This document shows, piece by piece, positions 1,778-56,810 of a DNA stretch of 64,000 nucleotides. The DNA lies in contig JAGOBM010000004.1 of NCBI GenBank assembly GCA_017983435.1, forward strand, positions 3,818-67,817, in the 5' to 3' direction. Position numbers and translations under genes: made by a program. The stretch comes from Candidatus Moraniibacteriota bacterium (GTDB lineage: Bacteria > Patescibacteriota > Minisyncoccia > Moranbacterales > UBA1568). Under the pieces are notes generated by a model that made no database searches, was not told where the DNA came from, and was given only the letters and a program-made list of their open reading frames with translations. Position 1 is the first letter of the stretch. Each line of letters begins with the position of its first letter.

Positions 1778-4063
1778 TTATTCCGAGAACGGATAGACGC
1801 GCACATACTGCGATGGCCGGTCATTGATATTGAGTTCCCAGGCCGGATCTGGCTGCGTGTAGTATTGGTCGAAACGGATGAGTCCAGGTTTCTGGCTGAG
1901 AATCTCGCCAGCCATCATCTTGGCGGTCCGGTTCTTGCGGTCAGATGAGACGACGATATAATCGAGCCCGTCGCGGCGGAGTGCCTCGTAGTTACGACCG
2001 CGCTTGCAGCGTCCGATGAAGAATTTGCAGACACCGTCCTTGTCGGTCCAGACGAGCATACTCTCCGCATTAGGGAGGGAATTGAGATACTGGGCGGCCT
2101 CATAGCTGCCAGACCCCATGTCTTTCACATTGGTATGCTGGTCGTTCGGAAGGAGCGAAGAGGCATAGGAGAGAGGAAATGGTGTCGTGGCGAGCGTCGC
2201 GGTACCGAGAGCGAGAATGAGGATCGCTACGGGGATTTCTGGAATCCGACGAAGGAACGCGAAGCGGGCGCCGAGCGTCTCCAGGAGCCAGGCGAGGGTG
2301 ATGCCGGCGATGATGGCTGCGATCGGGAAGAGAATGATCTGATAGCGGACGATCATGGCGACGTTGTTGACCGTGGCGCCGAGATAGTAGAGGAGGATGA
2401 AGGCAATCAGATAGAGAGCGGCGCGACCGGCAGTACTTTCGAGGAAAGTTTTCTTAAACAGCGCCAAGGGGATGCTGAGGACCAGGAGGAGCGAAAGCGG
2501 CAGGATACCGAAGATAAGCGGATAGAAATTGGTGAGGAAAATGCCGATGAAGTCGCTCCTGGTGGCGATGGTTTTCGGTGATGATAGGAGTTCGGAGAAG
2601 TCGTACGGGACCAGGCTGTTCCAGGAGATGACGAGCGTAGCGATGATGCTCGCGCCGAAGAGACTGCCGAGAAGAATTACGAACGGCCGTTTGACGCGAT
2701 CGAACGTGTCGATGACCGCGCTGATGATGCGTGCCCGATTGCCGATCTGGTCCACCAGGATAAAAGCGATGAGGATAAGGAAGAGCGGCGCGACTTTTTC
2801 GAAGGCCTGGCTGTAGATGGTCGAAGTCAGGAGTTTCTCTGGTTTGATCCAGACAGCCGGGAAGAGGACATAGAATGTCGCAAGCGCAGCGTAGGTGAGG
2901 ATGCCGAGCTCTATCAGGGATTGCTTGAGGAAAGTTCCGAAGCGCTGGTGTTCTGGGCGGTGGTAGAGGAATTCGAGAAAGATGAGGCCGATAAAGAAGA
3001 CGAAGAGGATATTGGCCACGTATTTGGTCAGGAGAGCGAGACCGAGAAAGATGCCGGAGAGGATGAGATAGCGAGCGAAGCGTTTCTCAAGGAAGATGAA
3101 ATAAGAGAGAAGTGAGAGCGGTGCGAAGAGCCAGAGGAGTGAGTCAGGATTGATGATCTTTGACATGCCGATGAGAATCGGCGAAGTAGCGATGAACGCG
3201 TAGGAGAACAAGGCAGTCTTCCGTCCGAGGAGGCGCTCAAGGAAGAAGTAGAAGAGCGGAAGGAGCAGGGTGATAACGATGAGTTCCGGGAGCCGGAAGG
3301 CGAGAAAGAAGCTCTCGATGCTGTCCTGGTTGCGAGTATAGGCCTCTCCCTCGTATTTGGTCGTCTTGTAGGCTTTCGGATCCTTGAACCAGAGTCCCGG
3401 TCCGGTGGACAGCGCGACGGTGATGCCGGGCTTATCGCTGATGCTCGTGCCTTTCCAATCGCGCTCCTCGATATTGTGCCAGTATTTTCCGATGCGCCCG
3501 TTGTACCAGAGCGGCTCATCAACGGCAGCGAACTTGGTGAGGTTGATCATGGCGAAACTGAAGAAGATGAATGTCCCCACGAAGACAGAGAGGAGAGCGA
3601 ATGACCCTTGGCGACGGAACCACTCGCGAGCGGTCAGGCTATCGGAGTGCCGCTGGCTCGAGCTTCGCAGGTGCGAGAGTGCGATTGAGGAGACGAAGAG
3701 TCCGGCGAGCATCATATAGCCGCTCTGCGCGATCTGGAAAACGTAGTGGAAATTCCTGGATTCGATGATGCCATAGGTCAGTACGAACCAGGCGGGGAAG
3801 GTAGCGAGGAGACCTTTCTTGAGCCAGGATCGCCACGCAGTCGGTCGGTGGTAGTAGAAGAGTATGCCGGTGAGAGTAATACCGAAAAAAGCGAATCCGG
3901 CGTAGAAAGGAGTATTGCTTTCGGCGAAGCGGAGGAAAATAAGAGAATCGGTCTGGCGGGCGATGAAAAAAAGCGTATTGATAGCAAGAAGAATGCTGAT
4001 AGCTGAGAGGAAGCGGTTTTCGACAGTGGTCAGAACGTGCTCTAAGGGTTTCCCGAGTGTCAT
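1778..4063 (-). CDS. GT-C fold polytopic membrane glycosyltransferase (dolichyl-phosphate-mannose protein mannosyltransferase / ArnT-like), 761 aa
   Basis: Long ORF with more than 12 predicted TM helices. The N-terminal loop (DEPLWYNGRIGKYW) and the hydrophobic core are typical of PMT_2/ArnT family. Has a C-terminal soluble domain. Paralogous to three neighbors. Confidence 0.7.
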   Translation of the reverse strand: MTLGKPLEHVLTTVENRFLSAISILLAINTLFFIARQTDSLIFLRFAESNTPFYAGFAFFGITLTGILFYYHRPTAWRSWLKKGLLATFPAWFVLTYGIIESRNFHYVFQIAQSGYMMLAGLFVSSIALSHLRSSSQRHSDSLTAREWFRRQGSFALLSVFVGTFIFFSFAMINLTKFAAVDEPLWYNGRIGKYWHNIEERDWKGTSISDKPGITVALSTGPGLWFKDPKAYKTTKYEGEAYTRNQDSIESFFLAFRLPELIVITLLLPLFYFFLERLLGRKTALFSYAFIATSPILIGMSKIINPDSLLWLFAPLSLLSYFIFLEKRFARYLILSGIFLGLALLTKYVANILFVFFIGLIFLEFLYHRPEHQRFGTFLKQSLIELGILTYAALATFYVLFPAVWIKPEKLLTSTIYSQAFEKVAPLFLILIAFILVDQIGNRARIISAVIDTFDRVKRPFVILLGSLFGASIIATLVISWNSLVPYDFSELLSSPKTIATRSDFIGIFLTNFYPLIFGILPLSLLLVLSIPLALFKKTFLESTAGRAALYLIAFILLYYLGATVNNVAMIVRYQIILFPIAAIIAGITLAWLLETLGARFAFLRRIPEIPVAILILALGTATLATTPFPLSYASSLLPNDQHTNVKDMGSGSYEAAQYLNSLPNAESMLVWTDKDGVCKFFIGRCKRGRNYEALRRDGLDYIVVSSDRKNRTAKMMAGEILSQKPGLIRFDQYYTQPDPAWELNINDRPSQYVRVYPFSE

Positions 4064-12581: not shown

Positions 12582-13406
12582 ATGTCTGCTTCGGAATCCG
12601 GCATCAAGATTTCCAATCGTGATTTTTCCATGGTTCTTTCACATCAATATCCGGCAAAAGTGATTATATCCGTCCCGCATGATGGGTCAATCAGGGATGA
12701 CTTTTCAGGAATATTCCGGAGGTCATCTGGCGTGACTGTGCGTGATATGCACGTGTGGTTAATCGTCAACGATATCATCCAACGATGTTTGCGGTTCGGA
12801 ACAAGAGTCGATGCGACCCGTTTTCTCATGGCACGTACCTACGTGGATGTGAATCGTGAAAGGCTAGGAGAACCGAATCTTTGTCCTGATACTCTCGGGC
12901 AGGCGGCTTTCGATGACCCCGATCTCGAAACGGTATACGGGCACTATCACAGTGAGCTTGTTCGGCTTTTAGACGCATCAGTCCGAGAATATGGAGCAGA
13001 GAATGTCTTATTTCTCGATATGCACGGTTTCAGCAAGCAGCCACTGTCTGTCCATGGTCAGGTCGCTCAGAACAGAATTGATGAGAATCCCATATATGCA
13101 TCGTATGATCTGATACTCGGAACCGCCAATCGAACGACGATCAACCACGGAGAAATAGATCGTCAATTTGAGGATTTTATGACTCGGAAAAGTTATGCGG
13201 TATTTTTGCCCAAAGAAAAACCGATATCTCCAGAAGGTGATCCCTATAGCGCCGGACATATTACCCGCCTTTATGCCAAAAAATACAGGATAAACGCGAT
13301 CCAAGTAGAGATTGACGCCCGTTTTCGAAGAAGTGAACAAGCCAGGGAAGCGGGTGAAAAATTAGCTTGGGATATGGCGGAGTTTTTGTCCGAACACTAC
13401 GCATAA
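12582..13406 (+). CDS. N-formylglutamate amidohydrolase (FGase) family protein
   Basis: Motifs VIISVPHDG, ARTYVDVNRE and LFLDMHGF match the FGase family metal-binding signature. SD aaggag lies 8 nt upstream of ATG 12582. Track start 12558 is probably too long. Confidence 0.6.
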   Translation: MSASESGIKISNRDFSMVLSHQYPAKVIISVPHDGSIRDDFSGIFRRSSGVTVRDMHVWLIVNDIIQRCLRFGTRVDATRFLMARTYVDVNRERLGEPNLCPDTLGQAAFDDPDLETVYGHYHSELVRLLDASVREYGAENVLFLDMHGFSKQPLSVHGQVAQNRIDENPIYASYDLILGTANRTTINHGEIDRQFEDFMTRKSYAVFLPKEKPISPEGDPYSAGHITRLYAKKYRINAIQVEIDARFRRSEQAREAGEKLAWDMAEFLSEHYA

Positions 13407-13494
13407 CATGCATCAAAAAACCGCTTCGGTCTATTATGACGAAGCGGTTTTGATTTTTTGCTGACTGTTAATTGTTTTCTGTTTGCTGATTTCC

Positions 13495-14997
13495 CTAGTA
13501 CATGATCACCGAGATCGGCTGCATGCGGGCGACGGGTTTTACGATCTGATTCTCGATGACGCTTTCGATGACATCGTCAGAGCGTTTGTAGTGGGAGGAA
13601 TCCTGTTCGATGACTTTGGATGATCGGCCGTTGTAGAGACGGACGCCTTTCGCTTCCAATTTCTTATCGAGCTCGGCTTTGTTCTCTGGGATGACGTCTT
13701 CGGTCTTCTGGGCGGATTTGCCGGCGCCGTGATTGCAGGAGAAGAAGCTCGACTCATTGCCGTCCTGACCCACGCAGAGGAAGGCCTCGGTCGACATCGA
13801 GGTTGGGATGAAGGCCGGCTCACCGGTCTCCTTGAAGAGCGGGTGATCGCTCATGCGGGACGGACCGTAGGCGCGGCTGGTGCCGTTGCGGTGCACCCAG
13901 ATCTTCTTCCCGTAGTGTTCTTCCTGGGAGACGAGGATATGCGGCATATCGTAAAGGAGCTCCATGCCGATATCGCGGCCGAGGACGCGCTTAGCGGTCT
14001 GGGCGACATTGTGCGCGATGACAGCGCGGTTGGCATGGGCGAAGTTCGAGCAGGCGTTGCGAGCGGCCATGTAGAGCTTCCCATCCTCGCCCTCGCCATC
14101 AAACTCGATAAGCGGCTCCTGCTTGCCAAAATCAGACTGGCGGATCTTTTCGGCGATGGCCTTGACCGTCGCTTTGTATGGCGTGCGCCAGAAGAAGCGT
14201 CCGATATTCATGAGGATGGCGGTCGAGAGATGCTCGCGCTTCTTGGCGGTATACATGTACATCGTGTACTGGCCGAGTATGCCGGAGCCGCAGTGGACCA
14301 TGAAGAGGTAGTCGCCGTTCTTGACCCCGAGCTTCTCGGCTGTGGCCGCGTCTTCGATGCCAGTGACCTTCATAAGATCGAGGAAATGATTGCCGGCAGC
14401 ACCGAGTATGCCGGAGCGGAACTGGGCGAAGAAGAGGAAGAGCGGAGGGATGACATCGGTGATCTCTTTCGAGGTCATCTCGCGATCGAAGAAATTACCG
14501 CGGTCAAGGGAGTTCTCAACCTCATGCTTGGTCTTGATACCCAAGTGGTCGATGAGCGGGCGGATACCTCGGCGGCAGATATCGACGATGACGCGGAAAG
14601 GGAGATAGGTGCCGACATAGGCTTTGGTCGGGACTTCCGGGACGAGTGCTTCGAAGAGCTGCTTGAGCTCTTCCTCGGTGATGTTGCTCTCATTGAGATT
14701 GGTGCGGACGAGGCGCATACCGCAGGCCGGGTCGCTGTCATTGAGCTGCGAGAGGATAGCATGCTCGGACGTGACGGTGGTGCCGGTCGCGTTCTTGCGG
14801 CCCGGTTTGCTGTGTACGTCGGCCATCGCCGCGATATGATGGAATATCTGGCTATTGCTCGCGACGCTCTCGAGCTGGGCCAGGGTCGACTCATTGGGCA
14901 TGAGCTGGTCCTGGACATGAAAAACGACCGGGACTTGCATCTTTTCGGTCTGCATCTCGCTCCGGTAGTCGGATATTTTTTTGAGAGGATAGGTCAT
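13495..14997 (-). CDS. rtcB: RtcB-family RNA 3'-phosphate ligase
   Basis: 500 aa. Motifs ADVHSKPG, MVHCGSG, NHGAGK are spaced as in RtcB. Large antisense ORF 13729-15012 rejected. Confidence 0.55.
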   Translation of the reverse strand: MTYPLKKISDYRSEMQTEKMQVPVVFHVQDQLMPNESTLAQLESVASNSQIFHHIAAMADVHSKPGRKNATGTTVTSEHAILSQLNDSDPACGMRLVRTNLNESNITEEELKQLFEALVPEVPTKAYVGTYLPFRVIVDICRRGIRPLIDHLGIKTKHEVENSLDRGNFFDREMTSKEITDVIPPLFLFFAQFRSGILGAAGNHFLDLMKVTGIEDAATAEKLGVKNGDYLFMVHCGSGILGQYTMYMYTAKKREHLSTAILMNIGRFFWRTPYKATVKAIAEKIRQSDFGKQEPLIEFDGEGEDGKLYMAARNACSNFAHANRAVIAHNVAQTAKRVLGRDIGMELLYDMPHILVSQEEHYGKKIWVHRNGTSRAYGPSRMSDHPLFKETGEPAFIPTSMSTEAFLCVGQDGNESSFFSCNHGAGKSAQKTEDVIPENKAELDKKLEAKGVRLYNGRSSKVIEQDSSHYKRSDDVIESVIENQIVKPVARMQPISVIMY

Positions 14998-51302: not shown

Positions 51303-51917
51303 TCAGATAGTCTTTTTCATGGGTTTTGGTTCGCCATCTGCCACGTACTCCTTGAAGGCAGAGCGGAATCCGTGATCAGTCCAATGTCCGGCGAAGAAAC
51401 CACCCGCAGGACAGCAGTCCCGGCGCATGCAGCCGACAAACGAGTTATCGACTTTGGTCGAGACATGCTTATACGGGAGAGTACTATCATCGCCATAGAG
51501 CGCGACGCCATCGCCCGGGCAGATGACATGTCCGCAGAGAGCGCACCGGGTCGCGTGCTGATGAAACATGAAGATCAAACATTCCGGGCACCAGCGATGA
51601 TGGTCGATACCGGAGAATACCGTACCGTAAGCATCGATACTGTAGGATGCCGGTCCATGGTGGCCGCACTCGCAGAGTACGGTTTCCGCAGACTGCTGCA
51701 CCAGGGACACAGTGTCGTGAGGTGCCGGCAACGATCCACGTTCCGGTCCGACGGATACGATGACACGTTCGCCAGCGGGCCCGACGACATCGGGAGTGGG
51801 CGTATGGATGACCGGATGATGCCGCTTAGCATCGGCTCGGGCATTCAATCTGAATATCACGATGACGATCAAGAGCGCTACCAGCGCGAGAGGAATATAC
51901 GACAGTGTATTGTCCAT
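51303..51917 (-). CDS. membrane-anchored Cys/His-rich putative metal-binding protein
   Basis: Start at Met18 (MDNTLSYIPLALVALLIVIVIF TM). Ectodomain rich in His/Cys clusters: KRHHPVIH, CECGHHGP, HHRWCPEC, CALCGHVICPGDG, GCMRRDCCPAGG. Confidence 0.45.
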   Translation of the reverse strand: MDNTLSYIPLALVALLIVIVIFRLNARADAKRHHPVIHTPTPDVVGPAGERVIVSVGPERGSLPAPHDTVSLVQQSAETVLCECGHHGPASYSIDAYGTVFSGIDHHRWCPECLIFMFHQHATRCALCGHVICPGDGVALYGDDSTLPYKHVSTKVDNSFVGCMRRDCCPAGGFFAGHWTDHGFRSAFKEYVADGEPKPMKKTI

Positions 51918-52085
51918 GGGAATTTCTCCTGGGAAATGACAGGTATTGCCCTGTCGTTGAGTAGTCAAAGAACTTCACGTATCCTCTTCTGCAGGATACG
52001 GTTGCAAAAAGCATGCCAGAAATAATATCAATTGTCAAGAATGAGCAGATAAAAAATCCATTCATAGAAGAGGATTTTTTTTGTT

Positions 52086-52122
52086 TTGGCTGAGGCTCTG
52101 GGACGATGTTGGAACTTACTTG
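52086..52122. repeat. ~35-bp 3'-UTR repeat, copy 1
   Basis: ggctgaggctctgggacgatgttggaacttacttg. A near-identical copy lies at 52481-52515. Confidence 0.5.
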
Positions 52123-52466
52123 GTATCAGTCCACTCACCTGAATTCTCATCATAATTGGACAAAGTGTCTCCCCCTACGCACATGCCATCCTCCACCGGA
52201 CCGATAAAGTACGCCACATCAACCAGCGTATTTGCTGCTTTTGTTTCCTGATAGTTGCCTGAGCGCCTGTAAGAAAAAAGCGAGACATCTCCTTGGTCAT
52301 CTACGGTAACCACTTCGTGCAAATAAACACCTTTCTCGTCTTCCAGCGTCCTGACTATTTCTGGATTTTCTTGGCCGCATAATTTTTCAATTTTTGCCTT
52401 CGCTTCTTCCAATGAAAGGAAACGTGGTTCTTTTTCGGCAGCTGGCATCGGGTTTTCAAAATTCAT
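52116..52466 (-). CDS. hypothetical protein
   Basis: 116 aa. Lies in a lower-GC segment. Confidence 0.4.
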   Translation of the reverse strand: MNFENPMPAAEKEPRFLSLEEAKAKIEKLCGQENPEIVRTLEDEKGVYLHEVVTVDDQGDVSLFSYRRSGNYQETKAANTLVDVAYFIGPVEDGMCVGGDTLSNYDENSGEWTDTK

Positions 52467-52480
52467 ACATTTGAAGTTAA

Positions 52481-52515
52481 AAAATAGGCTGAAGCTCTGG
52501 GACGAAGTTGGAGAT
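52481..52515. repeat. ~35-bp 3'-UTR repeat, copy 2
   Basis: ggctgaagctctgggacgaagttggagattatttg. Confidence 0.5.
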
Positions 52516-53174
52516 TATTTGATATAAGTCCAGTAGTCTCCGGATCCTACTATATCCAGTTTTCCATCGGAAATCCGTATCGCGGTTTGATCATCGGTAG
52601 CGTACACTGAGTGATTGAGCGAGTTTTTGAGTCCTTCCAAAACATCCTTTCTCACACGGGAGAACCATTCGGAATTGAGATGCGGGACGAACGAGAAATC
52701 ATAGAATTCCATGGGGTGTTCAAGCGTAGTACCGAAGTCTTCTTCCGGATAGATTGCTTTCAGTAATTCGCGAGATAGGTATTGACCCGCAACCATACTC
52801 CCCGCGCTGATGCCCATGTAAACCTTGGTATCCAGCATGGAAAGGAGGAATTCCTTCATTCCGATTTCCTTGAAAATTTTTGCGAGATATTGTTCATTCC
52901 CTCCACCAAATGAAATGATATCTGCTTCTTGCAGGCGCCTCTTCCATAGCTCAGGAGATACGGCAGCTACATCGAGGATATCAATGGATTTGAAGTGTCG
53001 TTTCTGAAGATTGACGAGATCATCGATAACCCAGCTTTTATCACCGCTTTCCGTATTTGCAGCTGTCGGTATATGGATTATTGAGAGTTCAGAAAGAGAG
53101 CGTCCGGCAAGCTCGGACAGAGCTTCAGCGATAACATCGTTTGTGAGACCCGCAGAAGTGAGAAGGAGTTTCAT
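52515..53174 (-). CDS. peptidase S51 family (dipeptidase E / cyanophycinase-like)
   Basis: MKLLLTSAG...GGGN...GISAGS (Ser nucleophile) layout of the S51 family. Confidence 0.65.
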   Translation of the reverse strand: MKLLLTSAGLTNDVIAEALSELAGRSLSELSIIHIPTAANTESGDKSWVIDDLVNLQKRHFKSIDILDVAAVSPELWKRRLQEADIISFGGGNEQYLAKIFKEIGMKEFLLSMLDTKVYMGISAGSMVAGQYLSRELLKAIYPEEDFGTTLEHPMEFYDFSFVPHLNSEWFSRVRKDVLEGLKNSLNHSVYATDDQTAIRISDGKLDIVGSGDYWTYIK

Positions 53175-53207
53175 AGATTTTGAGACTTTTTGACGAATTT
53201 GGAACTT

Positions 53208-53762
53208 TTATATTTCAAAATCCGCCTTTAATTTCTGGATAAATCGATGCATATGAGGATCAAAAGATGAGGTCGGAGCTTGTAATATTTCATCAAAAGT
53301 AAACCATTTATACCCATTAAATTCACCTGGATCGTATCGGATTTCATCCTGGATTCCTCCTGATAGGAGATACCATAGGCTGACATCTTTATGTCCAGCG
53401 GTTTTCCCTACAGTAGTGGTAATTGTCAGAAAAAAAGGATTTCCCCTAATAAATTTTGCTGTAAGGTTTAACTCCTCCATCGCTTCTCTTTCCACGGTTG
53501 CTTTAGGATCTTCATCCGCCTCTACATGCCCACCTGCTGGAAGCCAGAGTTCCGCTTTTATGTGGTCTACCAAAAGAATAGCTTTATTTTCAATATCTAT
53601 TACAACAAAATATGAAACAAGATGTTTTGGTGGTTTGTCGGGTTTTTCAATCCGAAAAATCTCTACTCCACTTTTAATCCAATGAAGGGCATCTTCTTGA
53701 TGAGTTTTTTCTAATTCATCAATCGGAGAAATTTTCTCTATCAGTTCTAAGTTCCGTTTCAT
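53208..53762 (-). CDS. NUDIX hydrolase
   Basis: Nudix box GGHVEADEDPKATVEREAMEELNL. Confidence 0.75.
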   Translation of the reverse strand: MKRNLELIEKISPIDELEKTHQEDALHWIKSGVEIFRIEKPDKPPKHLVSYFVVIDIENKAILLVDHIKAELWLPAGGHVEADEDPKATVEREAMEELNLTAKFIRGNPFFLTITTTVGKTAGHKDVSLWYLLSGGIQDEIRYDPGEFNGYKWFTFDEILQAPTSSFDPHMHRFIQKLKADFEI

Positions 53763-53857
53763 TATACGAAGAACCTGAGTTTATATATTGGCTTTCGTTC
53801 TCCTCAAAACGAGATACGAGTAATTTAAGTCTTTCCAACCTTTCTATTTTCATTTCT

Positions 53858-54058
53858 TTATTCAGCTTTGTTTATAACCTTCAAAACATCTCCCTTTCTA
53901 TAGCGTCTATCTTTTCTTGCCCCGAATCGGATTGCTTTCAGGATCCCTTTATTGTCCCAGTTGCGGAGGGTGTTCGGGTGGCAGTGCAAAATAGCGCACG
54001 CTTCGGAAAGTGTGAGGATGTCCGGCACTTCTTTGGTTTTTTCGGATTGTTTTTCCAT
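53858..54058 (-). CDS. excisionase-family / HTH_17 small DNA-binding protein
   Basis: 66 aa. LTLSEACAILHCHPNTLRNWDNKGILKAIRFG...RRY matches the MerR-like excisionase-family HTH. Confidence 0.55.
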   Translation of the reverse strand: MEKQSEKTKEVPDILTLSEACAILHCHPNTLRNWDNKGILKAIRFGARKDRRYRKGDVLKVINKAE

Positions 54059-54107
54059 CGATTTGGACTTACTATGAGTTTACAACCATTTGCACACATG
54101 AGCAAGT

Positions 54108-54413
54108 ATGAGGAAAACTAACAATACAGGCGAGATATTGCCGTATATCGACGAGGATATTCTTTTTCTTATCCTCAAACTTGCCGATTACCCATTCGGA
54201 AAGAAACGAACAATCAGCTATGAAGAGCTTCGGGGGCAACAAGACGATTCTACGTTTATAAAAATGATGCACGCGCTACTCGAAATGAGACATGCATTAG
54301 GTGGCATTGAAATACCTGATCTAAAAATCAATGTGCACTATTTCAGAAAGAAAAGGGGTCAGGTACCTTTTTATAAATGCTGGGGAGGAAGGGAAATCTC
54401 ACTACTCGGCTGA
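54108..54413 (+). CDS. hypothetical protein
   Basis: 101-aa ORF in an AT-rich segment. A competing minus-strand ORF 54072-54272 exists. Weak RBS. Confidence 0.3.
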   Translation: MRKTNNTGEILPYIDEDILFLILKLADYPFGKKRTISYEELRGQQDDSTFIKMMHALLEMRHALGGIEIPDLKINVHYFRKKRGQVPFYKCWGGREISLLG

Positions 54414-54540
54414 TAGGAATCGAGCCTGCGTTCAATAGGGCTTCCACCCTCTTGTCCTCGAAGACGAGGTCACCCCAAGCGGGGAAAACCTTTTTCCCCG
54501 ACCCCCTTTTGTTCGATCCCTTCCTCTCAATATAAAACTA

Positions 54541-54580
54541 AATCCGCGCCCAAATGAATCGGGCGCGGATTTAATTATTT
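54541..54580. terminator. bidirectional intrinsic terminator 3' of tRNA-Gln
   Basis: ATCCGCGCCC aaatgaatc GGGCGCGGAT perfect 10-bp stem with T-rich flanks on both strands. Confidence 0.6.
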
Positions 54581-54581
54581 G

Positions 54582-54653
54582 CTGGGGAGGAAGGGATCGA
54601 ACCTTCGCATGGCGGGACCAGAACCCGCTGCCTTACCGCTTGGCTACTCCCCA
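54582..54653 (-). tRNA. tRNA-Gln (anticodon CTG)
   Basis: Cloverleaf folded by hand: acceptor TGGGGAG/CTCCCCA, D-arm GCC-AAGCGGTAA-GGC, anticodon stem GCGGG/CCCGC with loop TTCTGGT (CUG), T-arm GAAGG-TTCGATC-CCTTC, discriminator G. CCA not encoded. Confidence 0.8.
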
Positions 54654-54907
54654 ATGGTCAAAATTCCTTTGAGTATTTCTCGTAGCGCTCTCCTACCAGA
54701 GGCTGTTTTGAAATACTGCTCTTTTTTTCTCGCTTCGACTAAGCTATCAAATTTATCTGAATATATCAACTCTAGTGGCCTGCGATGTCTTGTGGCTGCA
54801 CATTTTCCGGATTGATGTTCGAGGAGTCTCCTCTCAAGGTTGTCCGTGGATCCGGTGTATGTTTTGTTGTCCTTGAGACTTCTCAGGATATAGACGAATC
54901 CATCCAT
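54644..54907 (-). CDS. GIY-YIG nuclease family protein (88 aa)
   Basis: MDGFVYILRSLKDNKTYTGSTDNLERRLLEH matches the GIY-YIG motif. Its last codons ATT GGG GAG TAG are the first nucleotides of tRNA-Gln. Confidence 0.7.
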   Translation of the reverse strand: MDGFVYILRSLKDNKTYTGSTDNLERRLLEHQSGKCAATRHRRPLELIYSDKFDSLVEARKKEQYFKTASGRRALREILKGILTIGE

Positions 54908-55010
54908 AATAGAACCCGCTGCCTTACCCGCCTCGCGTCGATGAGTCCGCGAGTCGAGGCGGGCCGCTTGGCTTGCCACGTCTCTTTTTGAGACGGGCTA
55001 CTCCCCAATG
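54908..55010 (-). pseudogene. degenerate 5'-half copy of tRNA-Gln (nt 1-35) interrupted by two perfect hairpin insertions
   Basis: Minus-strand reading: TGGGGAGTAGCC + [CGTCTCaaaaaGAGACGtggcaa] + GCCAAGCGG + [CCCGCCTCG...CGAGGCGGG] + GTAAGGCAGCGGGTTCT. It then diverges exactly at the GIY-YIG start codon. Confidence 0.6.
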
Positions 55011-55138
55011 TCTTGGTAGTCGACTCTCAAAATCCGATGCTCGAAAAAGCCGGAATCTGAAGTCGGTCTGACAAAAACTATGATATCTGAAAAGTGAATT
55101 TTAATCAAGAAAAAACGCCTGAATCCCAGGTTTGGGAG

Positions 55139-55777
55139 TCAGGCGCGGGTCATGAAAGCCAGGATACGGGCGACACGTATTGCATGGCGGAGCTCTTGGT
55201 AGAGGACCCCCCGCTCTTTCGAGAGACGGAGATAGAATTCTATCGTCTCCGCGATCTTGCGGAGCTGCTTGCTGATCGAGCAGAAGCGGAGCGTGAGGAC
55301 ATTGTGTATCCGATCAGCTATCTTCACCCGCACGACTGCCGGTTCGGCTGTCTTGAAGGAGGAGTGATAGATGACATCGCATTCGTCTTCTGAGGCGAAA
55401 TAGATGGCCGAGAGCTTGGTCAGATGGAGGACATAGATCGCGAGCGTCGAGCAGTGATGATGCTTGAGGCGCGTATAGGTCCAATAATCGCCGAAGTGCT
55501 CGATGACATCATGGAAGAGCGCTGCGATGACCTCGTGGATATCGCGGCTCTTGAGATGTGTCACGACGATGACCGTGACAGCATGCAGGTGCGTCATGTA
55601 GGGCTCGCCGCTATCGCGGGTCACATCACGGAAGACGTATTCCATGAGATCGTAGGCATCGCGTATTCGGCGTCTGTCCTTGGCAGAAAACGATGTATGG
55701 TGACGGATGTATCGGAAGAACGACTGTTTGGTCCGGTAGCGCCAGAGGCGATACAGGAGCAATAAGAATTGCAGCAT
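55139..55777 (-). CDS. HD-domain protein (RelA/SpoT-hydrolase-like)
   Basis: EPYMTHLHAVTVIVVTHLKSRDIHEVIAALFHDVIEH carries the H...HD signature. Confidence 0.55.
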   Translation of the reverse strand: MLQFLLLLYRLWRYRTKQSFFRYIRHHTSFSAKDRRRIRDAYDLMEYVFRDVTRDSGEPYMTHLHAVTVIVVTHLKSRDIHEVIAALFHDVIEHFGDYWTYTRLKHHHCSTLAIYVLHLTKLSAIYFASEDECDVIYHSSFKTAEPAVVRVKIADRIHNVLTLRFCSISKQLRKIAETIEFYLRLSKERGVLYQELRHAIRVARILAFMTRA

Positions 55778-55895
55778 GATGACCTCCTCGGGAAGATGGG
55801 AAAGAACTGATACCCGATTGTAGCGGAATCTTCGTGGAAAATCAATACTCCCCTTTCGAGGAGTATACGGACAGTCTGAGTTCGATCGGCAATCG

Positions 55896-56810
55896 CTAGA
55901 TCTTCAGATAGCGGCGGATCGCAAATGAAGTGGAGACCGACGTGAGGACGATGCCGAGGAGCAGGAGCCCGATGAAGATGACCGGGAAATTATGTAGGAA
56001 GAGCGATTGCATATCCCCGGCTGGCAAGGCGCCGGCCGTGATCGGAGCGAGCGAGCGCGAGACGATGAACAGGAGAATCGAAGAGATGACGGCGGAGATG
56101 ATGCCGTAGAGCGCTCCCTCAAACAGGAATGGCATTTTCATATAGAGATTCGAGGCTCCGACGAGACGCATGATCTCGAATTCCTGCTGATGCGAGTGAA
56201 TCGTGATGTACATGGTGTAAAACGTGATGATGAGAGCCACCGCCACGAATATGCCGCCGAGCGTCAGGCCGGCAGTCGTCGAAGCGCGATTGATCGTCTG
56301 GAGCCGTTCGAAGATGCGCTTGTTCTTAGCGTAGTTGACGCGATTGATATCCTCTTTGAAAGCGGACTCCTGTATCTGGTTGGCAATCACGGCGTAGTGC
56401 TCGGGCCGGGTCGCCTTGATGACGAGCGAAGCGAGCAATGGGTTCTCTCCGATCTCTTCGAGCGCTTTCTTGACGGTCTCATCCTCGCCGTTCTGCGCGA
56501 GGAATTCAGAGAGCGCCTGATCACGGGAAATATATTCGACCGAAGCGACTTCCTCCGTGTACTTCTCGAGTGTCGTCTTGACCTCGTTGATGCGGTCTTC
56601 GCTCACGTCCGGATTGAAGGAAACCGTGACGTTGACCTTGTCCTTGATATTGGTGAGGACAAGACGGGTGGAGTAGGCCATGAAGGCTGAGAGTCCGATG
56701 ATGAAGAGCGAGAGGGTCAGGATAGAGATCGTCGCGAACGACAGCCAGCCGTTGCGGCGGAAGTTCCGTATGCCTTCATCGAATGTCCGCCAGAGCTTGA
56801 GGGTTTTCAT
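55896..56810 (-). CDS. ftsX: cell-division ABC transporter permease FtsX
   Basis: 304 aa with FtsX topology (TM1, large extracellular loop, 3 C-terminal TMs). Lies immediately downstream of ftsE. Confidence 0.8.
   Translation of the reverse strand: MKTLKLWRTFDEGIRNFRRNGWLSFATISILTLSLFIIGLSAFMAYSTRLVLTNIKDKVNVTVSFNPDVSEDRINEVKTTLEKYTEEVASVEYISRDQALSEFLAQNGEDETVKKALEEIGENPLLASLVIKATRPEHYAVIANQIQESAFKEDINRVNYAKNKRIFERLQTINRASTTAGLTLGGIFVAVALIITFYTMYITIHSHQQEFEIMRLVGASNLYMKMPFLFEGALYGIISAVISSILLFIVSRSLAPITAGALPAGDMQSLFLHNFPVIFIGLLLLGIVLTSVSTSFAIRRYLKI

Follow-up and report, generated by a model that had tools for sequence, protein, structure and literature searches.

A minimal GIY-YIG nuclease gene within a rearranged tRNA-Gln locus of Patescibacteria, and the recurrence of its layout at other bacterial tRNA genes

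The window analyzed here (the whole stretch of 64,000 nucleotides) contains a tRNA-Gln locus that is rearranged around a GIY-YIG nuclease gene. On the minus strand the tRNA promoter is followed by nucleotides 1-34 of tRNA-Gln interrupted by two GC palindromes, an 87-residue GIY-YIG ORF, an intact tRNA-Gln(CUG) gene and a terminator. Such a rearrangement had been described in a first-pass annotation of the sequence, and when examined with ARAGORN, Rfam and Pfam its sequence statements check out, with small corrections that are given below. The promoter of the tRNA-Gln transcription unit is sigma-70-like (TTGATT-17-TATCAT, 55080..55108, minus strand), and the TTGATT-17-TA..AT box is also present in the related loci L098, L099 and L102, which lack the GIY-YIG gene. 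The inserted unit appears to have no promoter of its own, and the tRNA-Gln promoter presumably now drives the fragment, the ORF and the tRNA together.

The displaced 5' fragment occupies 55010..54911 with its inserts included (this and all following parts on the minus strand). Its first part, CAT plus tRNA nucleotides 1-12 (TGGGGAGTAGCC, 54996..55010), is a direct repeat of positions 54642-54656; the repeat (CATTGGGGAGTAGCC) was correctly placed at both boundaries before but is 15 nt long and not 14, with a spacing of 354 nt. This part lies at the ancestral distance from the leader, since homology to the flank of the empty locus L098 is lost 19-20 nt ahead of the fragment, just as it is ahead of the tRNA in L098 itself. 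Then follow insert 1 (26 nt, 54970..54995), which consists of the hairpin CGTCTC-AAAAA-GAGACG plus TGGCAAGCC and has a homologous counterpart at the equal position in L014, L016, L017, L018 and L020, and the second part of the fragment (tRNA nucleotides 13-18, AAGCGG, 54964..54969). Insert 2 (37 nt, 54927..54963) sits at the D-loop position between nucleotides 13-18 and 19-34 and is a GC palindrome, CCCGCCTCGACTCGCG..CGACGCGAGGCGGG, whose arms can also be given as CCCGCCTCG..CGAGGCGGG. The third part (nucleotides 19-34, TAAGGCAGCGGGTTCT, 54911..54926) ends inside the anticodon. The copy and its two inserts were thus rightly recognized earlier, but the copy stops at nucleotide 34 rather than 35 and the palindrome of insert 2 is imperfect. 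When the inserts are removed, the upstream copy is identical to the intact tRNA-Gln at 34/34 positions, an identity far beyond chance. This upholds its proposed derivation from the tRNA, although the interrupted copy receives no tRNA score by Rfam, as would be expected of a 5' half with inserts in it.

The GIY-YIG ORF (54644..54907, minus strand) had been said to start exactly where the copy diverges from the tRNA; its ATG lies 3 nt past the end of the fragment. At the other end its final codons, ATT GGG GAG TAG, overlap nucleotides 1-10 of the intact tRNA as already noticed, with U8-A9-G10 as the stop codon. The intact tRNA-Gln(CUG) gene (54581..54653, minus strand) is found by ARAGORN with anticodon CTG and scores 59.7 bits with the Rfam tRNA model, and the transcription unit closes with an intrinsic terminator (54536..54576, minus strand) of an 18-pair stem and a T run.

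The encoded protein matches Pfam PF01541 (E 5e-15), and its best PDB matches are the UPF0213 entries 1zg2 and 1ywl (E 1e-15), with SLX1 next. An AF2 model (pLDDT 90) has UPF0213 and Slx1 as best fold matches, and the fold is nearer to Slx1, a group of structure-specific nucleases, than to I-TevI. The catalytic residues are intact: among 18 homologues Y6, Y17 and E63 never vary, and R27 and H31 hardly do. A weak and partial NCBIfam match to ‘group I intron endonuclease’ covers the GIY-YIG motif only. The protein is a minimal Slx1/UPF0213-type domain, that is, the catalytic domain alone without a DNA-binding domain, and not of the I-TevI/Seg type, so the earlier suggestion of a classical homing endonuclease is not supported. 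Since the closest folds are structure-specific and no further domain is present, sequence-specific homing is an assumption. Between diverged relatives the gene shows a dN/dS of 0.07-0.13, demonstrating purifying selection, and the ORF has diverged about as much as the host genes at the same locus. The family is large (13,516 representatives at 50% identity, E<=0.001); it is rare in viral contigs, and no vector is therefore evident.

On the 3' side of the tRNA a conserved non-coding element of about 150 nt (54378..54526, minus strand), which recurs in L093, L102, L016 and L017, opens with a 16-nt inverted copy of the T-arm (54526..54511) and closes with 17 nt that repeat the tRNA 3' end in direct orientation (54394..54378), both overlooked in the first-pass annotation. 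Position 54378 is exactly where the window and L093 cease to be homologous, and beyond it lies a strain-specific islet (52057..54377, minus strand), with a GC content of 37-46% against 53-60% in the flanks. The islet encodes, all on the minus strand, an excisionase-like HTH_17 protein (53858-54058, Pfam E 5e-10), an ORF of 44 residues (53719-53853), NUDIX and Peptidase_S51 proteins identified with Pfam (53208-53762 and 52515-53174) and an ORF of 116 residues (52116-52466); a plus-strand ORF in the same region (54108-54413) is doubtful. The low GC content and gene content agree with the earlier description, as does the lack of an integrase: no integrase or recombinase domain was found in the 49 window ORFs tested. 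Nor was a third repeat found at the far end of the islet. In L093, with flanks 92.8% identical, 2.8 kb of other genes take the place of the islet, and large serine recombinase islands adjoin the tRNA 3' end in L096 and L099. This end of the tRNA is a hotspot of integration with a content that varies between strains, and the 150-nt element is part of this hotspot and not of the GIY-YIG unit. Because L093 and L096 carry the GIY-YIG unit with different 3' content, while L099 and L102 have 3' islands and no GIY-YIG gene, the two vary independently, and the islet must be regarded as separate from the unit and not, as previously thought, as part of one element.

Comparison of the orthologous tRNA-Gln locus, which had been recommended, revealed both empty and filled alleles. 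The empty loci (L098/L097, L099/L101 and L102) have HD_4, the promoter, the leader and a single tRNA-Gln only, with neither GIY-YIG gene nor fragment, while the window, L093-L096 and L011 are filled. The closest filled/empty pair has flanks that are 74% identical; no pair with near-identical flanks was found among the related loci compared, and a metagenome scan for an empty allele of this lineage found nothing. Between L015 (filled) and L098 (empty) the 3' flank is 86-92% identical and the tRNA only 81%, in agreement with an arrival of the tRNA along with the element. In the comparison for chimeric tRNAs with a native 3' half and a foreign 5' half, 2 sites were in favor and 9 were not.

The layout is not restricted to this locus. 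Among 80 non-redundant loci of relatives from Patescibacteria, Bacteroidota and Ignavibacteriota, all identified from the protein alone, the ORF is followed within 130 nt by a tRNA on the same strand in 52, and these tRNAs represent ten identities (Gln, Arg, Leu, Asn, Ala, His, Asp, Pro, Glu and Ser). At least 14 nt of the 5' part of that very tRNA are found upstream of the ATG in 43 of the 52, usually split by a palindrome, compared with 5/52 when a random other tRNA is used as control, and in 17/52 the ORF stop codon is formed by tRNA nucleotides 8-10. A mirror form also exists: of 12 loci with a tRNA within 130 nt upstream, 10 have the ORF followed by a 3' fragment of their own tRNA, usually with a palindrome in the T-loop. 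Tandem arrays occur as well (e.g. L060), and a few loci (L012, L019, L021) have full-length tRNA duplicates on either side of the ORF. The fragment break point ranges from nucleotide 17 to 48 across related loci. Nearest-neighbor ORFs share tRNA identity in 43 of 66 cases, where 11.8 would be expected. Together with the empty relatives L098, L099 and L102, this recurrence bears out the earlier view that the rearrangement is the footprint of an element which targets tRNA genes and has a free-standing GIY-YIG gene at its center.

A reading of the hairpin insertions as random decay is not supported. They belong to a recurrent family of GC palindromes that is present in nearly all of these tRNA fragments. 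In these loci 69 of 76 GC palindromes lie within 150 nt of the ORF. The family of insert 2 is present in most related loci, and insert 2 is the sole palindromic pair of its motif in the window. The family is nevertheless not specific to the element: it is dispersed in metagenome contigs of CPR (candidate phyla radiation, Patescibacteria), and a GIY-YIG gene is present within 400 nt at only 10 of 84 palindrome-seeded sites. Palindromes in either orientation share one internal mismatch, which suggests a site acting at the DNA level.

A layout repeated at numerous tRNA genes across several bacterial phyla has the appearance of a widespread selfish element, and we consider it probable that the locus is a member of such a class, with a minimal Slx1/UPF0213-type GIY-YIG gene of about 85 residues inside a tRNA gene. 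No description of such an element was found in the literature searched. An ordinary tandem duplication of tRNA-Gln with a decayed upstream copy, the GIY-YIG gene and hairpins stemming from unrelated events, could explain the full-length duplicates around the ORF in a few loci, but it is disfavored and very improbable: a fragment identical at every position has not decayed, the empty loci have a single tRNA, and the order of truncated copy, ORF ending at tRNA nucleotides 1-10 and intact tRNA is found at ten identities in several phyla. Still more improbable is an origin from a group I intron of the anticodon loop that carried a homing endonuclease gene and has degenerated. Patescibacteria tRNAs do contain group I introns at 35/36, with positions ending in /36 enriched (PMC13011429), in keeping with the break inside the anticodon, and the NCBIfam match points the same way. 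Against this, group I intron models gave no match at the locus even at E<=5 and the ribozyme core is absent, the ORF takes up almost the whole interval, it is followed by a complete tRNA and not by a 3' exon, and the break point varies. We consider it equally doubtful as the tandem duplication that the locus is the remnant of an integrase-type element with tRNA-Gln as attachment site and the GIY-YIG gene and islet as cargo. The 17-nt repeat of the tRNA 3' end, the low-GC islet with its excisionase-like gene and the recombinase islands of relatives all favor it, but they account for the 3' side only. The position of the GIY-YIG unit is 5' of the tRNA, and what it duplicates is the 5' part; neither an integrase in the 49 window ORFs tested nor a third repeat at the far end of the islet was detected. 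The independent distribution of islet and unit, in which the unit can have various 3' contents or none and the islands can lack the unit, refutes this explanation for the GIY-YIG part, and with it the earlier label of a decayed integrative element.

A stronger competitor, although we regard it as unlikely, is that the nuclease is not, or no longer, selfish, but a host-useful or palindrome-associated structure-specific enzyme following a REP/RAYT-like logic. Its substrates would be the scattered GC palindromes, or structures that form where tRNA genes are highly transcribed. The gene would be parked beside a tRNA so as to be expressed, and by-products of the enzyme's activity at its own locus would account for the partial duplications of tRNAs. 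The relationship to Slx1/UPF0213 nucleases agrees with this, as does the presence of palindromes in both orientations. A palindrome next to nearly every gene copy, with most of the family elsewhere, is the pattern of RAYT genes and REPs. Likewise, strong purifying selection and a divergence similar to that of host genes also fit long vertical inheritance of a useful gene, and if the element is selfish, the rebuilt tRNA should remain a target of the nuclease. On the other hand, the gene is missing from this locus in close relatives, where no replacement is evident; ten tRNA identities, two mirror-image forms and tandem arrays are hard to explain by expression needs; and a single palindromic pair of this family in 64 kb leaves little for the nuclease to act on here.

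Our best reading is therefore a free-standing endonuclease element which rebuilds its target tRNA by partial duplication, so that tRNA genes are invaded without being destroyed. The insertion would have split the tRNA gene inside the anticodon, after nucleotide 34, and the duplicated 5' part directly after the ORF rebuilds an intact tRNA-Gln(CUG), while the original 5' part, now a dead fragment holding GC palindromes, would remain beside the promoter. The tRNA would then have to be excised from the 3'-terminal part of the nuclease mRNA, and as the stop codon lies within the tRNA, RNase P cleavage would remove it. Most likely the element spreads when the protein, presumed to be an active nuclease, breaks an uninvaded tRNA gene and the invaded copy serves as repair template, the tRNA-derived sequence on both sides of the ORF providing homology. 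Such homing would resemble that of T4 Seg genes and of the mobile ORFs in fungal mitochondria. As for the palindromes of the dead fragment, they may keep the repeats from recombining and thereby deleting the ORF, or may alternatively serve the nuclease as a structured DNA site.

The nearest analogues are these same mobile ORFs and T4 SegB. In the mobile ORFs (Allomyces atp6; Glomus atp6/atp9/cox2/nad3) an endonuclease ORF resides in an essential gene, which stays functional through a duplicate of the interrupted gene end beside the ORF; the element brings this replacement end and displaces the native one, which persists as an unused copy, and the ORF can be without its own stop or in phase with the host gene (PMC3630166). 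All of this resembles the present locus, where in contrast a tRNA gene of a bacterial chromosome serves as host, the nuclease consists of an Slx1-like domain and is not a full LAGLIDADG or GIY-YIG homing enzyme, both 5'- and 3'-duplicating forms exist, the displaced copy holds GC palindromes, and a foreign origin of the functional copy is favored at 2 sites and not at 9. SegB is a GIY-YIG homing endonuclease that recognizes tRNA genes by their conserved T-psi-C stem-loop motif and so promotes its own inheritance along with that of the neighboring tRNA genes (PMC2330249). Seg-type genes share with ours the free-standing GIY-YIG gene among tRNA genes, but the fold here is closer to Slx1 than to I-TevI. 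SegB is also far larger (about 220 residues versus 87) with a DNA-binding region, is phage-borne, and has neither partial tRNA duplication nor palindromes. In sequence (E 1e-15) and fold the protein matches the stand-alone Slx1-like/UPF0213 proteins (BH0048, EF2693), minimal GIY-YIG domains without auxiliary domains, for which the UPF0213 analysis describes neither a function nor genomic tRNA-gene linkage, a fusion with a TrmH-like tRNA methyltransferase being the only hint of tRNA (PMC1564403). Integrative elements that restore the tRNA 3' end likewise target tRNA genes, preserve function by a duplicated segment and have direct repeats at their ends, and the 3' side of this tRNA-Gln is such a hotspot; the GIY-YIG unit differs in having no integrase, in its size of only about 350 bp, in duplicating the 5' part in this form and in a break point that differs between lineages. 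As in REP/RAYT systems, a small nuclease gene regularly has beside it an imperfect palindrome whose family has further copies dispersed in the genome, but RAYTs are HUH/Y1 enzymes, not GIY-YIG, and have no known tRNA linkage. Group I introns in Patescibacteria tRNA genes share the phylum, the kind of gene and the insertion in the anticodon loop (PMC13011429), but here there is no ribozyme, and it is a duplication in the DNA, not RNA splicing, that restores the tRNA.

The tRNA-Gln locus of the window is on the minus strand and opens with a promoter-like box, TTGATT-17-TATCAT (55108..55080), directly past the terminator of the upstream HD_4 gene. It is followed by a fragment of tRNA-Gln (55010..54911), an ORF of 87 codons with a GIY-YIG domain (54907..54644), an intact tRNA-Gln(CTG) (54653..54581), found by ARAGORN and scoring 59.7 bits when positions 51500-56000 were searched with Rfam, and a strong terminator 3' of the tRNA (54576..54536). 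Sequence comparison with the tRNA resolves the fragment into CAT and tRNA nt 1-12, a 26-nt insert that includes the hairpin CGTCTC-AAAAA-GAGACG, nt 13-18, a 37-nt insert that is an imperfect palindrome (CCCGCCTCG...CGAGGCGGG), and nt 19-34; once the inserts are removed, it is identical to the tRNA at 34 of 34 positions. The ATG of the ORF is located 3 nt beyond the fragment end, and the final codons ATT GGG GAG TAG are nt 1-10 of the tRNA, with the conserved U8-A9-G10 as the stop. The first-pass annotation, which described a tRNA-Gln(CUG), a GIY-YIG ORF ending on it and a 5'-half copy with hairpins, was thus correct in every statement about the sequence.

Since no other promoter-like site was found between 54300 and 55200, we infer joint transcription of fragment, ORF and tRNA from the tRNA promoter. 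A TTGATT-17-TA..AT box is also present upstream of the tRNA in related loci without the insert. The tRNA would then be processed out of the 3' end of the nuclease mRNA, and an RNase P cut at tRNA nt 1 would take away the stop codon of the ORF. In three related loci (L093, L096 and L011) the ORF has one T more towards its 3' end (L093 6100-6150, against window 54644-54680), which shifts the frame and moves the stop from tRNA nt 8-10 (TAG) to nt 19-21 in the D loop (TAA), so both frames end within the tRNA. Elsewhere in the window (13495-14997, minus strand) there is a gene for RtcB, the RNA 3'-phosphate/tRNA-splicing ligase (Pfam E 1.9e-69), which we remark on solely because the locus abounds in interrupted tRNA copies.

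The protein carries the motifs of the GIY-YIG superfamily (PF01541, E 5e-15; 55.9 bits, cut-off 22.6); among 18 homologues Y6, Y17 and E63 never vary, and R27 and H31 hardly do. The AF2 model (pLDDT 90.2) shows the beta-beta-alpha-alpha-beta-alpha core fold of the superfamily, with strands at residues 3-10, 16-21 and 45-53 and helices at 24-33, 37-42 and 56-66. Foldseek matched this model to 1zg2, Slx1 and I-TevI; the TM-score to the Slx1 nuclease domain was 0.6-0.69, and UPF0213 and Slx1 came ahead of I-TevI (E 0.24). A family profile searched against the PDB gave 1zg2 (E 1.5e-15) and 1ywl (E 1.5e-14), with SLX1 next; the UPF0213 proteins matched by the profile are BH0048 and EF2693, both with solved structures (E about 1e-15). 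Profile and predicted structure together place the 87-aa protein in the Slx1/UPF0213 branch as a minimal stand-alone domain, consisting of the catalytic domain alone without an auxiliary domain. The NCBIfam “group I intron endonuclease” model covers residues 3-34 only, with 26.9 bits against a cut-off of 56. Values of dN/dS between diverged relatives are 0.07-0.13 (e.g. L017 and L020, dS about 1.6), and the protein has therefore been kept functional. Prokaryotic Slx1-like proteins have been described as minimal stand-alone domains (Dunin-Horkawicz et al., PMC1564403), in a paper where linkage to tRNA genes goes unmentioned.

The family is large, with 13,516 representatives at 50% identity for E ≤ 0.001 and 2,557 for E ≤ 1e-10, and is spread over Patescibacteria, Bacteroidota, Ignavibacteriota and others. 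An exact-protein look-up gave no record identical to the protein of the window, the PADLOC defence-system models gave no match for the nuclease, and among 2.9 million viral contigs there were six weak relatives only. Gene callers often place the start of the family's ORFs 20-60 codons further upstream, so that the call crosses palindrome and tRNA fragment, as in the protein records P0001 and P0004 and in many family matches (e.g. “...RREAGKAAGS...”). The lengths of 100-130 aa given for family proteins in databases are probably artefacts.

Comparison of orthologous loci showed that the GIY-YIG insert is present or absent at the same tRNA-Gln gene within a conserved prfB-ftsE-ftsX-HD_4 neighbourhood. 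The nearest genome that bears a name is a MAG of Candidatus Moranbacteria, so that the window probably comes from a member of Patescibacteria. The fragment-ORF-tRNA unit is shared by the window, L093-L096 (HD_4 protein 94% identical) and L011. The loci L097-L099 and L101 (HD_4 69% identical) and L102 (52%) are empty, consisting of promoter, leader and one tRNA-Gln(CTG), with neither ORF nor fragment. Filled and empty flanks are only 74% identical, so the insertion event is not recent, and the JGI metagenomes gave no match to an empty allele of the window's exact lineage. Flank homology between the window and the empty locus L098 stops 19-20 nt before the fragment, and at the same distance before the tRNA in L098, which argues that the original 5' end of the tRNA gene is the fragment with the palindromes; the added DNA would then be the ORF with a second copy of nt 1-34, amounting to 354 nt when the two inserts are counted in. 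A base-pairing test across loci, in which fragment and current 5' part were compared for pairing with the 3' half, favoured the native fragment at two sites and the current tRNA at nine. In the window fragment and tRNA are identical, and the position of the fragment adjoining the native leader fits what is expected of a displaced native copy. Between the filled locus L015 and L098 the 3' flank is 86-92% identical, the tRNA just 81%, and the region upstream cannot be aligned, a contrast that fits movement of a block.

The generality of this layout was surveyed with two peptide patterns from the protein in one genome per species, which yielded 400 confirmed relatives, from which 80 non-redundant loci were kept, the window among them. 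A tRNA on the same strand follows the ORF within 130 nt in 52 of the 80 loci, and its identity may be Gln, Arg, Leu, Asn, Ala, His, Asp, Pro, Glu or Ser. The ORF ends 10 nt into this tRNA, using U8-A9-G10 as the stop, in 17 of the 52 loci, and deeper within it in four more (offsets -13, -15 and twice -21). At least 14 collinear nt of the 5' part of the same tRNA are found upstream of the ATG in 43 of the 52 loci, compared with 5 of 52 when a random other tRNA was used as control. Most of these fragments differ from their tRNA by 0-1 mismatch, and they end anywhere between tRNA nt 17 and 48. They are mostly split by a GC palindrome, of the type CCCGCCTCG..CGAGGCGGG in Patescibacteria and CCCGCCCGAC..GTCG(TT)CGGGCGGG in Bacteroidota and Ignavibacteriota, located after nt 7, 10, 19 or 21/22. 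Several contigs stop at the element, which suggests that its repeats break assemblies. Nearest-neighbour ORFs share the amino-acid identity of the tRNA in 43 of 66 cases (11.8 expected, a comparison partly confounded by vertical descent), with clear switches, for instance between Arg and His and between Ala and Asp. On contig CAZTBI010000001.1, from one genome, diverged copies are present at both tRNA-Gln isoacceptor genes (L018 and L020).

A mirror form of the same arrangement was found in 12 loci, where the tRNA is located at most 130 nt upstream of the ORF; a 3' fragment of this tRNA follows the ORF in 10 of the 12 (mirror-form loci include L060, L065, L068, L071, L077, L054 and L091). Here the palindrome is within the T loop past GGTTC, and the 3' flank of the tRNA is repeated behind the fragment. 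Close relatives may differ in form (L022 and L024, 69% identity; L063 and L071, 65%). Two or more tandem GIY-YIG ORFs at one tRNA locus occur in L060, L065, L032, L051, L061, L066 and L082: L060 (2391-4200) has about five, with a palindrome-bearing tRNA fragment after at least the first, and in L065 (2358-3110) there is one behind every ORF. In L005, the locus of the window in a member of Moranbacteria, the ORF is followed by an intact tRNA-Gln and then by an older tRNA-Gln copy (3361-3497), which lacks nt 1-7, contains a D-loop palindrome as well as one precisely at 37/38, and has a 3' half identical to the tRNA of the window. Position 37/38 is the canonical site of tRNA introns in archaea and eukaryotes. 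Among CPR metagenome contigs found through the palindrome we also observed “tRNA inside tRNA” arrangements without any ORF (L183 about 13090-13790, L176 about 1200-1900, L144 about 100-800 and L141 about 3200-3900), where an outer tRNA with a D-loop palindrome is interrupted, close to its anticodon loop, by a second tRNA that is intact and has the identity of the outer one. Inverted repeats of about 13 nt flank this inner tRNA in L183 and L176 (TCCCACACCAAAT / ATTTGGTGTGGGA in L183).

Within the 64-kb window the palindrome motif occurs as a palindromic pair at the GIY-YIG unit only, and of the 76 such palindromes in the loci found through the protein, 69 are at most 150 nt from the ORF. The window and five related loci, representing two different tRNA-Gln genes, have both inserts in common at the same positions, with conserved stems and variable loops. 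A metagenome scan seeded by the palindrome alone, in which 84 sites in 80 loci were examined, showed a GIY-YIG gene within 400 nt at 10 of the 84 sites and a tRNA within 500 nt at 17; specificity of the palindrome for the GIY-YIG unit is consequently rejected in general, and the palindrome is a dispersed repeat family. Copies in either orientation have an identical internal mismatch, an indication of a DNA-level element. Insertion into the loops of existing stem-loops did not hold up as a general rule, a stem of at least 6 bp being present around 5% of the sites and 2% of random positions. In the window the palindromes divide the direct repeat into blocks of 15, 9-10 and 18 nt, and, speculatively, most recombinational losses of the ORF would bring a palindrome into the sole tRNA-Gln(CUG) gene seen there. 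As an alternative speculation, the palindromes could be the structured DNA site of the nuclease.

On the 3' side of the tRNA the first-pass annotation described a low-GC segment with HTH_17, NUDIX and peptidase E genes but no integrase. All of this was recovered: the GC content is 37-46% compared with 53-60% in the flanks, Pfam identified HTH_17, NUDIX and Peptidase_S51 proteins, and no tyrosine or serine recombinase gene, as would be expected inside an integrative element, was found when 49 ORFs of the window were scanned, a set that excludes about ten of 150-250 aa. The HTH_17 protein gave a generic PADLOC match to mad1. Two features had been overlooked: the 3' end of the tRNA recurs as a 17-nt direct repeat (54394..54378), 186 nt from the end of the tRNA, and its T arm as a 16-nt inverted one (54526..54511). 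The islet lies beyond the 17-nt repeat, and no other repeat was found even with up to 3 mismatches. The window and L093 are 92.8% identical as far as position 54378, where the 17-nt repeat ends, and the identity resumes at 52056 and below; the interval is taken up by the 2.3-kb islet in the window and by 2.8 kb of other genes in L093. L096 has the GIY-YIG unit as in the window and diverges directly past the tRNA, where a large serine recombinase gene (2610-3968, minus strand) overlaps the tRNA-Gln. A similar gene, also overlapping the tRNA, is present in L099 (3762-5300, minus strand) at the tRNA 3' end, together with a Rep-like gene and without GIY-YIG, and L102 has a HEPN/zeta-toxin island on this side. 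The serine recombinase elements of L096 and L099 use the tRNA-Gln 3' end as attachment site. Since the 3' content varies in this manner among the window, L093, L096, L099 and L102, the tRNA-Gln 3' end is an integration hotspot, independent of the GIY-YIG unit on the 5' side, and the earlier proposal that islet and GIY-YIG rearrangement are one element is not supported.

Between the tRNA-Gln terminator and the repeated tRNA 3' end there is a conserved non-coding element of about 130-185 nt (window 54378-54526, minus strand; L093 6252-6392; L102 4955-5092; L017 2863-3053; L016 2650-2830). It opens with the inverted T-arm copy, which is a perfect 16-nt inverted repeat in the window, and in L102 it ends in the 3' end of another tRNA-Gln allele. 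The element had no Rfam match; RNAalifold gave some compensatory pairs in small hairpins, and the closing helix is not conserved in L102. Within the islet a 26-nt motif, YTCCAACWTCGTCCCAGAGCYTCAG, occurs three times (53181-53207, 52490-52516 and 52091-52117) and is also found in L098 (5737-5762) and L093 (8260-8285). Where the sequence was followed on to an ATG, for two copies of the window and one of L093, the motif precedes the start codon by 8-21 nt; it may be a promoter, a leader or a recombination site. The unrelated 116-aa protein and Peptidase_S51 share a W-T-x-x-K-stop ending inside a 46-nt repeat (52116-52133 and 52515-52532), which suggests cassette-like exchange at this repeat. A plus-strand ORF of 101 aa (54108-54413) without a family match runs into the 17-nt repeat and is a doubtful gene.

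We consider it fairly probable that the locus is a selfish element with an endonuclease gene, which inserts into tRNA genes and preserves their function through partial duplication. Spread would take place via break repair, with the tRNA-derived sequence on both sides of the ORF as homology. As in elements of the mORF type, the ORF of the window and of the family is located between an intact host gene and an unused duplicated part of it (43 of 52 loci in the 5' form, 10 of 12 in the mirror form). The weak points of this reading are that the protein has no DNA-binding domain and a Slx1-like fold, and that the rebuilt tRNA should still be a target for cutting; a recent filled/empty pair was found neither among the relatives compared (74% flanks) nor in the JGI metagenomes. 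A Seg/I-TevI-type enzyme would agree with the same-site presence/absence polymorphism observed in related genomes, but its domain layout was rejected, as the 87 aa comprise the catalytic part only and no C-terminal sequence-reading DNA-binding domain. A group I intron with a homing endonuclease gene was likewise rejected, with no intron family at E ≤ 5 and a complete tRNA after the ORF; in 51500-56000 only the tRNA passed in Rfam, and no group I intron, riboswitch or other known RNA was found.

A more far-reaching reading, which we regard as unlikely, is that a minimal Slx1-like GIY-YIG nuclease and an imperfect GC palindrome are a two-part mobile system of nuclease and structured DNA site, moving itself, whole tRNA-gene cassettes and solo palindromes through the genomes of Patescibacteria and Bacteroidota. 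The ORF-less loci L183, L176, L144 and L141 would be products of the same machinery, and the fragment palindromes an anti-excision device, because most recombinational losses of the nuclease gene would move a palindrome into the only functional tRNA copy. In the window the palindromes divide the direct repeat into blocks of 15, 9-10 and 18 nt, and, speculatively, most recombinational losses of the ORF would bring a palindrome into the sole tRNA-Gln(CUG) gene seen there.

If the selfish-element reading is true, it provides the first biological context for the tiny GIY-YIG proteins, labelled “hypothetical”, of a very large family, and accounts for the recurrent tRNA fragments and assembly breaks near such genes, as well as for the over-long gene calls with N-terminal extensions through the fragment (P0001, P0004). 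The nuclease may then recognise tRNA genes by a conserved motif or structure, which would be relevant to enzymologists and tool builders, and the element would bear on the tolerance of tRNA-gene invasion in reduced genomes with apparently one copy per tRNA. The full-text literature, in coverage that was incomplete, gave no account of minimal GIY-YIG genes that are linked to tRNAs and accompanied by a partial tRNA duplication, and an earlier description is possible. A recent survey of tRNA introns in Patescibacteria treats group I and group II introns and does not mention GIY-YIG (PMC13011429).

Two known systems follow the same logic as the one proposed here. Fungal mitochondrial mobile ORFs bring a replacement gene end that displaces the native one (PMC3630166), and the strategy of a mobile ORF with a replacement gene end would, if our reading is true, also be at work on bacterial chromosomal tRNA genes. 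The T4 enzyme SegB is likewise a GIY-YIG enzyme directed at tRNA genes, where it recognises the T-psi-C motif (PMC2330249). Free-standing endonuclease elements that bring a replacement gene end are known, and what appears to be new is the class of host gene and the branch of the nuclease.
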